43,062 bases of DNA from a virus. The position numbers and the translations under genes are program-made. This document shows, one piece after another, positions 30,153-38,311 of this stretch. The stretch is from the UHGV virus genome UHGV-1377764; one strand, given 5' to 3'. Below the pieces are notes generated by a model. That model had not been told where the DNA came from. It saw only the letters and a list, made by a program, of their open reading frames with translations, and ran no database searches. The stretch's first letter is position 1; each line of letters begins with the position of its first letter.

Positions 30153-30197
30153 GAGTTCTTTATTTGCTTTTAAACGCATAACTACCCAACTATCAAA

Positions 30198-30231
30198 ATT
30201 TAAAGTGCTTAGAATGCTCGTGAGAGACACA
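30198..30231. repeat. 34-bp direct repeat copy A (atttaaagtgcttagaatgctcgtgagagacaca) upstream of lysis cassette
   Basis: Identical except 1 nt to 31987-32020. Confidence 0.8.
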
Positions 30232-31922: not shown

Positions 31923-31924
31923 TA

Positions 31925-31956
31925 AAAAACCACTGGTTAGACCAGTGGTTTTTTGC
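31925..31956. terminator. bidirectional rho-independent terminator (13-bp stem AAAAACCACTGGT / ACCAGTGGTTTTT, 3-nt loop) where the two gene blocks converge
   Basis: Read directly; A-run on one side and T-run on the other. Confidence 0.85.
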
Positions 31957-31986
31957 TTTTAAATGGGTAATCACCTTGTTTGATTT

Positions 31987-32020
31987 ATTTAAAGTACTTA
32001 GAATGCTCGTGAGAGACACA
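31987..32020. repeat. 34-bp direct repeat copy B overlapping the last 7 codons of the deoxynucleoside kinase gene
   Basis: atttaaagtacttagaatgctcgtgagagacaca. Confidence 0.8.
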
Positions 32021-32705: not shown

Positions 32706-32927
32706 CTATTTAAATTCTTCCCATTTGTTTGGTGCAAATCCCATACTTACAAGCTCACCATCTTTAAACACTACAGGTAGTGTTCTTAGGTTCATAGTAA
32801 GTAATTCATTTAAACCTTCTAGATTATCATCCACATTAACCTCAGTAAAGGTGTGTCCTTTTCCTTTAAACCAGTTCTTTGTCATTTTACAAGGCATGCA
32901 ATTATTTTTAGTATAAATTTTAATCAT
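32706..32927 (-). CDS. nrdH: NrdH-like glutaredoxin
   Basis: ORF trimmed to MIKIYTKNNCMPCK (CxxC) with RBS AAAGGAGGAAATTAAA; start overlaps stop of upstream MTase C-terminal frame. Confidence 0.65.
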   Translation of the reverse strand: MIKIYTKNNCMPCKMTKNWFKGKGHTFTEVNVDDNLEGLNELLTMNLRTLPVVFKDGELVSMGFAPNKWEEFK

Positions 32928-32928
32928 T

Positions 32929-33661
32929 TTAATTTCCTCCTTTAACTTTAAATAATTTTTCAACTCGTTGTTTATTTTTTATATCTCCTTGATTTGTAAT
33001 AGATACCTTTGTGTCTTTACTCCATATACATTCAAATTTATCTTCTGGCATTTGGTATTCACTAATTAATACTGTATTGTTTTTAGCTAATTCAATAGCC
33101 CACTTATCAAAGTCCGCATATGGAAAGTTTCCAGTTGAATAAGATAATGTTTTTCTATATGGTGGGTCTAGATAAAAGACACAGTTTTTATAATCAGTTG
33201 GGTTATAATCAGTAAATGATTTACATTCAAATGTAACATCTTTAAACAGTGTTGATTGTTTTTTTTAAATTTTTGATAGCACCAGCTGACCACTCACCGC
33301 TATCGTCTCCTTTTTTGTTTCTAGCGTATCCACCAAAATACTTAGCTCCAAACGAACCACAAAATCCCACTAAACCAACATACCAGGGTTCGTAGCTATC
33401 TCTATTTGCTTTTACACGATTGTATTCTTCTTCTGAAATTCTTGAAGGTATTAAAGATGAATCATCTCTAGTATAGTTTAATAATGCAATTAATTCTTTG
33501 TGTACATCACTACCTATTTTATTATGATGGTTTATTTTATCAATCATATTAGCTCCACCTACAAATGGTTCAATATATGCTACTGTCTCATCTGTAATGT
33601 AACTTTGAATGATTGGTGCTAATTCTTTACTAAGTCTGTTTTTACTTCCTACGTATCTCAT
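32929..33661 (-). pseudogene. Dam-like N6-adenine DNA methyltransferase, copy 2, split by +1 frameshift at A8 tract
   Basis: N-terminal ORF 33242..33661 (MRYVGSKNRL..EPFVGGANM motif I) stops just after A8 (plus T8 33259-33266); C-terminal 93 codons incl. FYLDPPY motif IV intact in +1 frame to 32929; ~90-95% nt identity to 36045..36773 at both ends. Confidence 0.7.
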
Positions 33662-33694
33662 GTTCTTTACTTCCTCCTCTTAACTTATGAATTA

Positions 33695-33723
33695 AGTATA
33701 ACACCTCAGTTAAGAGGTGTCAA
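33695..33723 (-). promoter_or_regulatory. early promoter TTGACA-N17-TATACT with spacer palindrome ACACCTC-TTAAC-TGAGGTGT, conserved leader
   Basis: Read directly. Confidence 0.55.
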
Positions 33724-33727
33724 GTGT

Positions 33728-36007
33728 TTAATCAATATAATTTTTAACTTCTGGAAATTCTTTCATTTGACTATGTGCTTGTTCAATCCGTTCTTTCCAG
33801 CTAGTACCAAACCATAGTACTAGCAGGTCTTCCACTTGGTTTATATAGTACTCTTTGTCAATATCATCAATAGTTATCCATCCTTCACCAATTGCTTCAT
33901 TGTCAATGGCATAGTACTCAGGCGCATTAGGCAAGCCTTTAGTGTAAGAATCATCACCAATAATTGTAGTACCTTCCTCTTCAACAACAGCTCCACGTTT
34001 TACTTTGAATATTTCAACAGATTTGTTAGGGTCTTTTATTGCAAATGTACGATTCACTTTTTGTGCTTTTCGTTCATTACCATAAACATCACGTACTACA
34101 GTATCGTCAAAAGTCCATCCAGTTTTGGTAATCATTTGGAATTGACGTAGTTCATCAGATTCATTGATAAACTCTTTGTAATCTTTACCACTAACAACAT
34201 AATTAATGAACGCATTTGAAACAATCGCTTTAGAGACTTTCAATCCCTTTGTTAGACCAATTGCTCCTTTGACTTTAACTTTACCTTTAGCAGTCACAGC
34301 TAAATAATTATTGACGTCCTTCTGGAAAATAGCTATAAATGGATCATCATCTAATGTGTACCCTGTTCGTTTCATCCAATCATCTGCGATATCATCAATG
34401 GCTTTTTCATCTTCTGCACTAAATGGAATGTAATAGTGAGCATCTGTGTTTGATTGAATAATGGTGGCATGGTCTTCAATCTTTTCTAGTAAATCCCACA
34501 TTGCCATCTGACCAGTAATACACACTAATAACCGCATGCGTGGGTCATACAATTTGTTAAACTCAGCTCCCATTGCACCATATTTAGTATTTAGAGGTAG
34601 TTTATAACCATCAATTAACAACTCAGTTGGAATCTGAATGCCTTTAATTTCAGTAAACTCTTTATTGGAATACTTGGCTTCCATACGTTCATCTAATAGC
34701 ATTTGATAAATATGACGCTTGTCTTCTGGAATGTTTCTTGATAAGTAGTCAAATAAAACCATTGTATTTGGATAAAGTGAACCAACGTCGCGTGCGTGGA
34801 AGTTACCTACATGAATAAATGACTCTTTAGCACCATGTATACCACCTACCCCTAAAACCTCTGTGACGTCTCTACGTGGTACATCTAATGAAATACTGGC
34901 ATGTCCTTTATCATTAGCTTCAAATTCCTCTGTCATAAACGCCTGACGAATGGTCTCTGACTCAATTTCAAATCCTTCTGGTAGTTCATACTTATCTAAC
35001 TCATCACCTCTATCAGGTGTTTTCTCAGCCCCTAATAGTTCAGCTGTTAAATTTGCGTTAGTCATTGATAGTGCCATTTTATCTAAACCAAAGTATAAGG
35101 CAATTGCAGCTTTAGCTACTAACATACCTATGTTTTGTTCAAAGCGTTTTTCCGTAGCTAACACGTCATTTTTACAATATAGTTCGTTCAATACTTGTTC
35201 TTCTTCAGTTAGTTCTCTATCTAAATCAAAGTCTACTTCAGTTTCTTTAATATTAATACCCATGAAAGCACTATGTTCTTTCAAACTAAACCCTCTATTG
35301 TCTTGATACAAATCCATTCCAAAAAGGGGTGTTTTCTTAGTATCAAACATTTTATATGCTAATGCTCTATCATCACTTTCAATGATTGCTTTTGACACAT
35401 GAAACGGGTTTTTACCCTGTAAATATGCACGCATGACATTGGAGTCATATGAGTGTGAGTTATAACCTACAAACAATGAATCTCTATTCGCAAGATAGAA
35501 CTTGCGTAAAGCGTCTAAATCATTATGAATGACTGTCCATTCTTTAGTGAAGTAATCTCTGAAAACAAATAAATTATCTTTTTTAAATACTTCAATATCA
35601 TAAATATAAATTGTTTGTTTTGTTAGTGCCTCGTTTGGTTTATCAGGTAAGTTTTCAACAACCCCTCCTTCTTGGTTAATGGTTACATTTGGAAAACCAT
35701 TGTTGTATTTTAGAGTAATATTCAACTCCTGACCTACTTGGATATCTTCCCATGTTTTCCAATCTTGTTTACGAAACTTCATGATATAAAATGTAGCATC
35801 ACGCCCATCGTTTGTGCTACGTACTTTAATTTCCTTCATCTCTTTACCTTTAGCGCTTAATCGTTCCTCAGCTTTAAGCACTACAACTTGATGAACTCCT
35901 TCCGTCATTGGATCAAAGCTTTTTCCATTACCTGCTAATGCAGAAAATATTTCCAATAGTTTAGATGCTAGTTTTTCAGCACCTTGAAATTCTGCTATGT
36001 TTTTCAT
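33728..36007 (-). CDS. family B DNA polymerase with 3'-5' exonuclease domain
   Basis: 759 aa; Exo I YIYDIE, Exo II YNSHSYD, Exo III YCKND; Pol motif A DVGSLYPN, motif B KLPLNTKYG, motif C-like SNTDAHY. Confidence 0.65.
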   Translation of the reverse strand: MKNIAEFQGAEKLASKLLEIFSALAGNGKSFDPMTEGVHQVVVLKAEERLSAKGKEMKEIKVRSTNDGRDATFYIMKFRKQDWKTWEDIQVGQELNITLKYNNGFPNVTINQEGGVVENLPDKPNEALTKQTIYIYDIEVFKKDNLFVFRDYFTKEWTVIHNDLDALRKFYLANRDSLFVGYNSHSYDSNVMRAYLQGKNPFHVSKAIIESDDRALAYKMFDTKKTPLFGMDLYQDNRGFSLKEHSAFMGINIKETEVDFDLDRELTEEEQVLNELYCKNDVLATEKRFEQNIGMLVAKAAIALYFGLDKMALSMTNANLTAELLGAEKTPDRGDELDKYELPEGFEIESETIRQAFMTEEFEANDKGHASISLDVPRRDVTEVLGVGGIHGAKESFIHVGNFHARDVGSLYPNTMVLFDYLSRNIPEDKRHIYQMLLDERMEAKYSNKEFTEIKGIQIPTELLIDGYKLPLNTKYGAMGAEFNKLYDPRMRLLVCITGQMAMWDLLEKIEDHATIIQSNTDAHYYIPFSAEDEKAIDDIADDWMKRTGYTLDDDPFIAIFQKDVNNYLAVTAKGKVKVKGAIGLTKGLKVSKAIVSNAFINYVVSGKDYKEFINESDELRQFQMITKTGWTFDDTVVRDVYGNERKAQKVNRTFAIKDPNKSVEIFKVKRGAVVEEEGTTIIGDDSYTKGLPNAPEYYAIDNEAIGEGWITIDDIDKEYYINQVEDLLVLWFGTSWKERIEQAHSQMKEFPEVKNYID

Positions 36008-36044
36008 ATATTTACTTCCTCTCTCGTTTGAATATACTATTATA

Positions 36045-36773
36045 TTATCTTACTTTGAATAGTTTTTCAACTCTTTTTTTATTTTTTATATCTCCTTGAC
36101 TGCTAATTCCAACCTTAACCTCTTTGCTCCAGATACATTTAAATTTATCTTCTGGCATTGCATATTCACTAATTAGTACAGTATTGTTTTTAGCTAACTC
36201 TATAGCCCATTTATCAAACTCTTTGTATGGAAAGTTTCCAGTTGAATAAGATAATGTTTTTCTATATGGTGGGTCTAGATAAAAGACACAGTTTTTATAA
36301 TCAGTTGGGTTATAATCTAAAAATGACTTACATTCAAAAGTAACACCTTGTAAGTTTGGTGCTTGCTGTTGTAAGTTTAGTATTGCTTCATTTGGATAGT
36401 CACGTGGTGTGATACCATCAGCTTTATAACCTCTAGCATATCCACCAAAGTATTTGGCACTAAATGACGCACAAAACCAAACTAAACCAATATACCAATC
36501 TTCGTAATAATCCTTGTTGTTTTTTACATGAGTGTACTCATCTTCAGATATTGTTTTTGGCAAAAAGTTAGAATTATTTTTATTATAGTTGTGTAATGCG
36601 ATTAATTCTTTGTGTAAATCACTACCAATTTTATTATCATGTTTAATTTTATCAATCATATTAGCCCCACCTACAAATGGTTCTATATATGCTACTGTGT
36701 CATCTGTAATATAACTTTGAATGATTGGTGCTAATTCTTTACTAAGTCTGTTTTTACTTCCTACGTATTGCAT
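36045..36773 (-). CDS. Dam-like N6-adenine DNA methyltransferase, copy 1 (intact)
   Basis: 242 aa; motif I EPFVGGANM, motif IV DPPY; 5' UTR (tattcaaacgagagaggaagtaa) duplicated in front of the polymerase gene. Confidence 0.7.
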   Translation of the reverse strand: MQYVGSKNRLSKELAPIIQSYITDDTVAYIEPFVGGANMIDKIKHDNKIGSDLHKELIALHNYNKNNSNFLPKTISEDEYTHVKNNKDYYEDWYIGLVWFCASFSAKYFGGYARGYKADGITPRDYPNEAILNLQQQAPNLQGVTFECKSFLDYNPTDYKNCVFYLDPPYRKTLSYSTGNFPYKEFDKWAIELAKNNTVLISEYAMPEDKFKCIWSKEVKVGISSQGDIKNKKRVEKLFKVR

Positions 36774-36875
36774 ATAGTTACTTCCTCTCTCGTTTGAATA
36801 TAATATAGTATATCACATCTATTATTAGTACACAAGTACAAAGTATAAACTCTATGAAGCTCTCAATTGTGTATC

Positions 36876-37429: not shown

Positions 37430-37460
37430 TTTAATCTTCCTCTCTTTATCTTATGAATTA

Positions 37461-37489
37461 AGTTTACCATGCAATGCTTACCTTGTCAA
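37461..37489 (-). promoter_or_regulatory. early promoter TTGACA-N17-TAAACT with conserved leader
   Basis: Read directly. Confidence 0.55.
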
Positions 37490-37697: not shown

Positions 37698-38222
37698 TTA
37701 TTTATATTTGAAGGTATATCCTCCAGTTTGTTTACGTCTACCTTTTAAAACGTCTGTAATATGTGCTTGATTTAACCCTAATTGTCTAGCGCATTCACTA
37801 ATTCCATAGAATTCTCTAAATTCACCAGTTTTTATATTAGTTGCAATGATTGGAATACTTTGCGTTTTAGCCATTCTTTCAGTACGTGTTCCATGATTGA
37901 GGTTCTCTTTTCTAGTAGACCATTCTAGATTGTTAACATTGTTGTTAGTCTTATTTTCGTCTATGTGATTAACCTCTGGTTTATTTTCTGGGTTTGGGAT
38001 AAACGCTTGGGCTACTACACGGTGGGTTTTATGATTTTTATGCTTACCGTTTTTACATAAAGTAACTAGTAAATAACCCTGTGGGTGTCTATGTGGTTTT
38101 AAAACTCTACCTTTACGTATTCTACCTAACTTATCTGTAGTATCAAAACTCTTAACTCTTCCTAAATTACTCACCTGATATAATCCTTCAAAGCCTTCAA
38201 TATCTTTCCAAATTTCTTTCAT
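37698..38222 (-). CDS. free-standing HNH homing endonuclease (NUMOD4 + HNH_3 + C-terminal NUMOD1/IENR DNA-binding)
   Basis: 174 aa; WKDIEGFEGLYQVSNLGRVKS, VNHIDENKTNNNVNNLEWST, GISECARQLGLNQAHITDVLKG; own promoter TTGACT-N17-TAAAAT at 38253-38281. Confidence 0.75.
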   Translation of the reverse strand: MKEIWKDIEGFEGLYQVSNLGRVKSFDTTDKLGRIRKGRVLKPHRHPQGYLLVTLCKNGKHKNHKTHRVVAQAFIPNPENKPEVNHIDENKTNNNVNNLEWSTRKENLNHGTRTERMAKTQSIPIIATNIKTGEFREFYGISECARQLGLNQAHITDVLKGRRKQTGGYTFKYK

Positions 38223-38311
38223 TCTATTTCCTCCTCTTTATCTTACAAGTTAATTTTAGCATGATAAAAGAAAAGAGTCAACCGTTTAGGCTAACTCTTT
38301 TTTAATTTATT

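Follow-up and report, generated by a model that had tools for sequence, protein, structure and literature searches.

The window analysed here is the whole 43,062-nucleotide (nt) stretch of the virus genome UHGV-1377764. This report concerns the part of it in which polB, a predicted DNA polymerase gene, lies between two genes related to Dam-type adenine methyltransferases, hereafter called methylases. The following features make up the locus:

36045-36773, minus strand: upstream methylase, an intact open reading frame (ORF) of 242 amino acids (aa)
33728-36007, minus strand: polB, a 759-aa ORF
33242-33661, minus strand: 5' ORF of the downstream methylase, 139 aa, with motif I and part of a type-B recognition segment, ending in TAA at 33242-33244
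32929-33264, minus strand: 3' part of the downstream methylase, in the +1 frame, 111 codons including the DPPY motif
33259-33266, minus strand: frameshift site, a run of eight A (A8; T8 on the plus strand)

The reading that we favour, and hold to be probable, is that the methylases are two optional cassettes of orphan anti-restriction enzymes, drawn from a recombining pool of alleles with variable recognition segments, and that one of the two is inactivated in this genome. The locus is a case of ordinary phage mosaicism, and the idea of a polymerase cassette, put forward in a first-pass annotation made from the sequence alone, is rejected.

The genome is that of a lytic Enterococcus siphophage, kin of IME-EFm5, RG1 and EF36P1. 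The 4.5-kb region around the locus matches Enterococcus phages exclusively, the best matches being IME-EFm5, RG1, EF36P1-3 and KEN21 at 87-88% identity. The identical genome was recovered by an exact-protein look-up from two ENA metagenome assemblies, one of 43,181 bases and the other of 43,117. These lengths equal that of the window plus a terminal overlap of 119 and 55 bases, respectively, and the window is thus a complete, circularly assembled phage genome. A run of 14 T at positions 2-15 marks the linearisation point of the circular assembly.

The neighbourhood of polB was typed in 25 distinct relatives, taken from a phage-record collection and from IMG/VR. Additional loci came from exact-protein look-ups, and a further 80 IMG/VR loci were found with the methylase as query. 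polB is present and syntenic in 25/25 typed relatives and in all further Enterococcus-phage loci that span the region, and the order of a 68-aa ORF, an upstream slot, polB, a downstream slot and nrdH is constant across relatives. The content of the slots differs from one phage to the next. Both are filled in the window and in EF36P1-3; the downstream slot only is filled in IME-EFm5, RG1, L013, L014 and the genomes carrying the alleles P0099, P0126 and P0132; and the upstream slot only in KEN21, L025, L038-L041 and every Efquatrovirus examined. Decayed remnants occur in BUCT630 (upstream slot) and L011 (downstream slot), and frameshifted copies in L022, L009/L036 (two shifts) and FX417. Some relatives have no methylase, and in certain cases a 201-nt ORF or an HNH gene is found there instead. 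Since the methylases vary while polB is constant, the former are mobile, dispensable parts and the latter belongs to the fixed backbone. The first-pass annotation had seen in polB a recently acquired or modular cassette, a proposal that does not survive the comparison, because the gene is syntenic in every relative examined, whatever its methylase content. Two copies are carried by 3 of the 58 Enterococcus phage records with a homologue and by 0 of the 80 polB-associated methylase loci from IMG/VR, so that the two-copy layout is rare and variable rather than ancient and fixed with both copies intact. In the literature searched, these methylases receive generic annotation only, and no account of the two-copy layout was found.

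Several of these loci have peculiarities of their own. In IME-EFm5 (KT588072, L001 1605-2549) the stop codon of the downstream methylase is lost (..GGAAATGAAATG..), and the gene is annotated as a single 945-nt coding sequence that runs in frame through nrdH, a natural methylase-glutaredoxin fusion; the RefSeq annotation of the region differs. The upstream slot of BUCT630 (L006 4209-4567) holds a frameshifted remnant of the 3' half of a methylase, about residues 121-242, part of which is annotated 'thioredoxin domain', apparently in error. An unrelated viral contig (L121 4501-5955, IMGVR_UViG_3300014039_000089) carries two tandem methylase homologues that do not flank a polymerase.

Gain and loss of the methylases can be followed at the gene boundaries, where these elements lie:

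36774-36875, minus strand: conserved leader of the upstream slot, with an extended -10-like TGaTATACT (seen by eye and not scored by the promoter scan) and the ribosome-binding site (RBS) GAGAGAGGAAG
36778-36800, minus strand: copy 1 of a perfect 23-nt repeat, at the RBS of the upstream methylase
36012-36034, minus strand: copy 2 of the repeat, at the RBS of polB, within the 37-nt spacer from the methylase stop codon to the polB ATG
33695-33723, minus strand: best promoter-like site of the region, with TTGACA, a 17-nt spacer, TATACT and a TG before the -10

A comparison of the junctions with those of dArtagnan, IME-EFm5 and RG1 shows that, where the upstream slot is empty, polB directly follows the same 102-nt leader that stands before the upstream methylase in the window. 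Upstream-slot methylases are followed by a spacer of 35-38 nt that supplies a second RBS for polB, and in the window this spacer contains the exact 23-nt leader repeat. There are exactly two occurrences of the sequence TATTCAAACGAGAGAGGAAGTAA, one ahead of the upstream methylase and one ahead of polB (0 expected in shuffles). As the two 23-nt copies bracket the upstream cassette, recombination between them would delete it cleanly. The first-pass annotation had attributed a duplicated RBS and 5' untranslated region to the two methylases; the repeat is in fact common to the upstream methylase and polB, and the leader of the downstream methylase differs. The promoter-like site lies between the polB stop codon and the downstream slot, its spacer holds the inverted repeat CACCTC..GAGGTG, and the final codons of the downstream methylase (GGAGGAAAT TAA) carry the RBS of nrdH. 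Alleles of the two slots differ in their C-termini, which read ..KV(R/K)GGx in the downstream slot, where the codons concerned form the GGAGG of nrdH, and ..KVR in the upstream slot. On this arrangement we propose that two accessory slots border polB, each just 3' of a promoter-like leader, and that cargo would enter after the leader RBS and before the start codon of whichever conserved gene comes next (polB or nrdH), supplying that gene with a substitute RBS from its own 3' end.

Similar promoter-plus-leader units (TTGAC-, 17 nt, TA-A-T with TG, then TAATTCATAAG..GAGG) are found on the minus strand at 33670-33705, 37436-37471 and 38234-38263, where they precede the downstream slot, a TM2-protein gene and an HNH gene, respectively. 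The three repeated units look like a phage-specific promoter family.

The two methylases of the window are direct repeats that flank the polymerase gene, in the same orientation and ~3.1 kb apart, as the first-pass annotation had it. The annotation had also described a divergent centre between ends '90-95% identical', and both observations hold, the second approximately. In the nucleotide alignment, identity between the copies is 92% over the first 190 columns, 67% over columns 191-455 and 88% over columns 456-720, with an overall value of 81%. The longest perfect tracts measure 89 nt and 57 nt (36712-36768 = 33600-33656), and the longer one is placed as follows:

33122-33210, minus strand: 89-nt tract that matches 36229-36317 of the upstream copy without a difference, covering the DPPY motif

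Between the copies, synonymous divergence (dS) reaches 1.2 in the centre, compared with 0.22 and 0.47 at the two ends. The nearest alleles of the upstream copy, at 98%, 95% and 89% amino-acid identity, are all found in genomes with the upstream slot only, and those of the downstream copy in genomes that fill the downstream slot alone. The central dS of ~1.2, together with the closer relatives of each copy in single-copy phages, indicates that the two copies are alleles and not the products of a recent duplication. The recognition-segment types are not bound to a slot: the upstream copy of the window is of type A (GYARGYKADGITPRD), and type B is found in the upstream slot of KEN21 and in the downstream slot of the window. 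Likewise, the first 190 nt of the allele P0004 are nearer to the downstream copy of the window than to its upstream copy.

A Sawyer-type run test on polymorphic sites gave a concordant run of 46 between the window copies, a length reached in 0/20,000 permutations. Intragenomic gene conversion, which the 89-nt tract and this result brought into consideration, has been largely withdrawn as an explanation, since P0002, P0004 and P0005, the closest upstream-slot alleles, carry almost the same tract in single-copy genomes. The tract is missing from the intact downstream alleles that have seven A at the frameshift site (A7). Being mostly common to P0002-type alleles and absent from the A7 downstream alleles, it points to an exchange between lineages that is real but predates the window genome or happened elsewhere. 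The sole window-specific match to the resident downstream copy is a 3-nt patch, AAC, which places GNF where GGF would otherwise stand and looks like a conversion within the window lineage.

The downstream copy had been taken for a single gene of 32929-33661. This does not hold: the ORF that starts at 33661 stops at 33242 after 139 codons, and the remainder, with the DPPY motif, lies in the +1 frame. Removal of one A from the A8 run yields an uninterrupted protein of 243 aa, and the homologous gene of KEN21 has A7 at this position. The 5' fragment scores 33.2 bits against PF02086, while the 3' fragment alone scores 16.4 bits, under the 22-bit threshold; no usable internal start was found in the 3' part upstream of the DPPY motif. 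The A8 run is present in both window assemblies and in the IMG/VR contig L022, whose flanks are ~93% identical to the window, and thus in three independent assemblies. The truncated 139-aa product of the L022-type allele was also found on 13 further contigs from several human-gut metagenome projects, which brings the A8 allele to at least 15 contigs; A-run pattern scans of IMG/VR and JGI metagenomes returned three contigs only. The window contains three internal homopolymers of at least 8 nt, and all other genes of 100 aa or more that were compared with dArtagnan read through in one frame. On these sequence comparisons, A8 is a heritable mutation rather than an artefact.

Alleles of this group that are intact, with A7, are in circulation as well (P0099, P0126 and P0132; loci L042-L044 and L051-L053). 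A single 3' haplotype is common to the 15 A8 contigs, and the A7 alleles are on other haplotypes, as far as consensus assemblies, in which minority variants are not visible, can tell. Confinement of A8 to one 3' haplotype indicates that it arose once, and nothing in the alleles suggests repeated switching. The downstream allele of the window has itself arisen by recombination, its 5' part resembling the A7 group and its 3' part resembling L022. We propose that the downstream copy has been inactivated by the heritable gain of one A in an A7 tract. A different downstream-slot allele, present in L009 (5347-6095) and L036 (ERZ772879 NODE_965), bears two frameshifts; its occurrence in two independent datasets means that decay of the downstream methylase is recurrent.

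Translational coupling of the downstream copy to nrdH had also been suggested. The geometry is indeed that of coupled genes, with a stop codon 1 nt before the nrdH ATG and the nrdH GGAGG within the last codons, but the coupling itself is not upheld for the present allele: translation ends 311 nt before the gene end, so that it cannot operate without recoding.

Both genes are D12/Dam-like (PF02086), and their assignment to the Dam-type family is confirmed. The upstream methylase scores 53.9 bits against PF02086 (gathering cut-off 22) and also matches PHROG 56. Motif I (F33-V-G-G36; FxGxG in the general form) and D167-P-P-Y170 are invariant in 121 sequences, and the order of motif I, recognition region and motif IV matches E. 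coli Dam residues 30-265 in hhalign; in the downstream copy the frameshift puts DPPY and motif I into different frames. In hhalign the family profile matches E. coli Dam with a probability of 92% and E = 5e-7; residues 31-207 of the Dam sequence used agree with a retrieved alignment. Hidden Markov model similarity to E. coli Dam and DpnM is remote (E about 1e-3). The variable segment aligns over the DNA-recognition hairpin region of E. coli Dam, including R137 and Y138, which makes a change of specificity between alleles plausible; R137 and Y138 align to R114 and Y116 in type-A alleles only. No nuclease partner adjoins either copy, the neighbours being the 68-aa ORF, polB, nrdH and the deoxynucleoside kinase gene (dNK). 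An Efquatrovirus gene has been annotated as Dam-related, with the suggestion that it may protect against host endonucleases or BREX (PMC13517437). On our reading, both slots of the window hold an orphan Dam-like N6-adenine methyltransferase, the two being different alleles of one polymorphic, recombining family, and methylation of the phage DNA may allow escape from restriction or from other methylation-sensing defences, with the allele setting the motif.

The upstream copy carries three private substitutions, a number that does not make it an outlier. One of them, G99W (codon 36477-36479), is unique among the 121 sequences: the glycine, which aligns to Dam G121 (hhalign), is kept in all 120 homologues listed. 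A unique change at an otherwise invariant glycine means that activity of the upstream copy is not guaranteed.

Some observations weigh against the favoured reading or limit it. The score against TIGR00571 'dam' is 55.8 bits, under the cut-off of 114.85, and the loop of E. coli Dam that contains R124 is a deletion in the methylase family (hhalign). R124 is among the residues by which E. coli Dam recognises GATC (2G1P structure). With the score below the cut-off and the loop absent, GATC specificity cannot be assumed. GATC has an observed/expected ratio of 0.45, alike in the window and in the methylase-less dArtagnan, and this equal depletion means that composition does not show the methylase to matter. 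An AlphaFold2 model of the upstream copy (mean predicted local distance difference test score, pLDDT, 56; predicted template modelling score, pTM, 0.42; shallow alignment of 53 sequences) is too poor to place the variable segment. The 3' part of the A8 allele is free of further lesions in either haplotype, which fits a recent inactivation and equally a leaky rescue. Finally, the anti-restriction role, the allele-specific specificity and the lack of active enzyme from the A8 copy are predictions from sequence, whereas the anatomy of the locus, the family membership, the presence/absence polymorphism, the mosaicism of the alleles and the single-origin frameshift are established by the comparisons.

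polB is predicted to encode a divergent family-B-like DNA polymerase. It matches PHROG 1252 'DNA polymerase' with E = 1.8e-168 and NCBIfam PRK05761 with E = 2e-6, and its profile matches Sulfolobus PolB1 (1S5J) with E = 1.5e-4 across motifs B and C; E. coli Pol II is a weak match. Similarity to solved enzymes is detectable only over the motifs B/C region, and no Pfam family was reached at E <= 0.01, the family-B models PF00136, PF03104 and PF03175 included. By eye, the motifs read DVGSLYPN (A), KLPLNTKYG (B) and SNTDA (C), against the family-B forms DxxSLYPS, KxxxNSxYG and DTDS, the last being atypical.

The first-pass annotation had offered a different account, in which a recent methylase duplication brackets an acquired, excisable polB cassette or serves to diversify methylation specificity in the window genome. 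The direct repeats with their perfect 89- and 57-nt tracts, the variable centre over the predicted recognition region and the retention of two intact copies in EF36P1-3 all agree with it. We nevertheless regard it as very improbable, since polB is syntenic in all relatives with 0, 1 or 2 methylases, the central dS is about 1.2 and much closer alleles of each copy reside in single-copy genomes; moreover, the downstream copy is frameshifted and the repeated leader belongs to the upstream methylase and polB. Excision, as envisaged there, is geometrically permitted, in that recombination between the copies would delete polB together with one chimeric methylase, but a biological cassette it is not: polB being conserved in all relatives, the deletion product would be without a conserved replication gene. 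Diversification of specificity, too, is retained in part, for the allele diversity of the population and perhaps for EF36P1-3, and abandoned for the window genome, where the downstream copy is frameshifted and has no recoding signal. A different main source of slot variability would be free-standing HNH homing endonucleases that target the polB region, with methylases hitch-hiking on double-strand-break repair and co-conversion. I-HmuI-like genes do sit in the same slots of L015, L017, L019, L020 and L040, an HNH gene accompanies a methylase in EF36P1-3 and L014, and the window carries one at 37698-38222. Most methylase-bearing genomes, however, have no HNH gene in the slot, and leader/RBS repeats suffice to explain gain and loss. 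As the main cause we think this unlikely, although of the alternatives it has the best claim, as a contributing and not an exclusive factor.

The remaining alternatives concern the A8 run. A functional switch could take the form of A7/A8 phase variation or of leaky slippage, either by RNA polymerase or as a +1 ribosomal shift (tRNA-Lys on AAA AAA A). Within one allele group both the A7 and the A8 form are in circulation, A8 is widespread and keeps its 3' part open in two haplotypes with 19 differing sites, and by eye a +1 shift on the last AAA would yield exactly the restored protein. Long A/T runs can cause bacterial RNA polymerase to slip, the reported minimum for the E. coli enzyme being 7 T 'and even more' A residues (PMC6260861); rescue at A8 would by this measure be possible but marginal. 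Several points speak against a switch: A8 is limited to a single 3' haplotype, of which the 15 contigs include no A7 version; the surroundings of the site contain no stable RNA structure (fold z-score +1.09) and, by eye, lack both a Shine-Dalgarno-like stimulator upstream and a slow or stop codon in the 0 frame, where the next codon is ACA; the A-run merely encodes Leu-Lys-Lys in type-B alleles (A7 in KEN21, A6 in L009); and relatives without any methylase are viable. A switch of this kind is accordingly judged improbable. A little more doubtful still is the further step in which the A7/A8 tract is a genuine on/off or leaky switch that, with a second allele of other specificity, gives phasevarion-like variation of methylation in a lytic phage. 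Were a switch to operate, a second methylase in a fraction of genomes or transcripts would amount to bet-hedging against defences that act on unmethylated or methylated DNA; were the phasevarion-like version true, the conserved gene ends would be handles for swapping recognition segments between slots. Least probable of all is a sequencing or assembly artefact concealing two intact methylases. Homopolymers are error-prone on some platforms and a single base restores the frame, yet the same A8 came from two assemblers (k119 and k55 overlaps), from L022 with its 93%-identical flanks and from the 13 further contigs, and the remaining genes of at least 100 aa are all unbroken.

In phasevarions of the mod and hsdS type, the ends are conserved, the recognition segment in the centre can be exchanged, and a homopolymer switches the frame. 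They are built on host Type III and Type I genes, for which high-frequency switching has been demonstrated. The methylase family of the window resembles them in its conserved 5' and 3' ends, variable centre and homopolymer tract, but its members are phage orphan, Type II-like enzymes, and the A8 contigs bear no sign of reversible switching. Closer counterparts are the orphan methylases of Efquatrovirus (IME_EF3 gp29, Abitsa_048), which have ~240 aa, lie immediately upstream of polB and share 69-84% amino-acid identity with the upstream copy among the records listed; these phages have one copy, in the upstream slot only, in all records examined, whereas the window adds a frameshifted and different downstream allele. 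EF36P1, EF36P2 and EF36P3 (OP172793-5) share the order methylase-polB-methylase-nrdH and have recognition segments that differ between copies. Unlike the window, they keep both copies intact, have an I-HmuI-like HNH gene between polB and the downstream copy, carry a downstream allele of type C instead of type B, and gave a non-significant run test for exchange between copies (P = 0.053). T4 Dam, P1 Dam and the lactococcal and streptococcal phage orphans (reviewed by Murphy et al., 2013) are likewise solitary, located among early or replication genes and presumed to serve restriction evasion; the window family differs from these classical orphans in that its similarity to E. coli Dam and DpnM is only remote. 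An actinophage methylase family is described as undergoing horizontal transfer frequently, and recombination within the gene as well (PMC9957025). This offers a parallel of a phage methylase evolving by transfer and intragenic recombination, although the family and the hosts are others and that work concerns inteins and insertion elements.

For annotation, it follows that the downstream copy should not be called an intact methylase and that polB should not be treated as mobile. The locus is a clear case of two accessory slots at gene boundaries beside an essential gene, whose states (empty, filled, decayed, frameshifted, HNH-occupied) are all visible in public data. The methylase family offers at least three to four recognition-segment types on a conserved scaffold, which suit studies that relate sequence to methylation motif. 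They are also useful for asking which enterococcal defences are evaded by phages considered for therapy, a comparison for which the circulating frameshift allele is a natural knockout. The practical value is modest.

The gene order of the window is that of phage dArtagnan, with structural and lysis genes on the plus strand and a long replication operon on the minus strand, the last genes of which are polB, nrdH and dNK. Beyond the downstream methylase, the end of the operon consists of the following:

32706-32927, minus strand: nrdH-like glutaredoxin, 73 aa, with its ATG 1 nt after the downstream methylase stop codon
31998-32693, minus strand: dNK, 231 aa, with a GTG start and a GGAGG RBS that overlaps the nrdH stop codon; final gene of the leftward operon
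31923-31955, bidirectional: terminator, 3' of dNK

Free-standing I-HmuI-like HNH genes (NUMOD4 + HNH_3) are found in the window at 37698-38222 (minus strand) and in slots of L003, L015, L017, L019, L020, L038 and L040. Their positions around polB, nrdH and dNK differ between relatives, and they may promote exchange of adjacent cassettes.

Other palindromes are also depleted across the whole genome, with observed/expected ratios of 0.13 for TCGA, 0.29 for GGCC and 0.46 for CGCG and 0 sites for CCGG. The values of dArtagnan are almost the same, and this shared depletion suggests long-term avoidance of restriction sites that is independent of the methylases.

A direct repeat of ~70 nt (30160-30231 and 31949-32020) brackets the XhlA-holin-endolysin module and consists of a 34-nt core with 97% identity and a 27-nt part with 78% identity. 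Because the second copy reaches into the bidirectional terminator, the lysis module, too, may be a cassette open to exchange.

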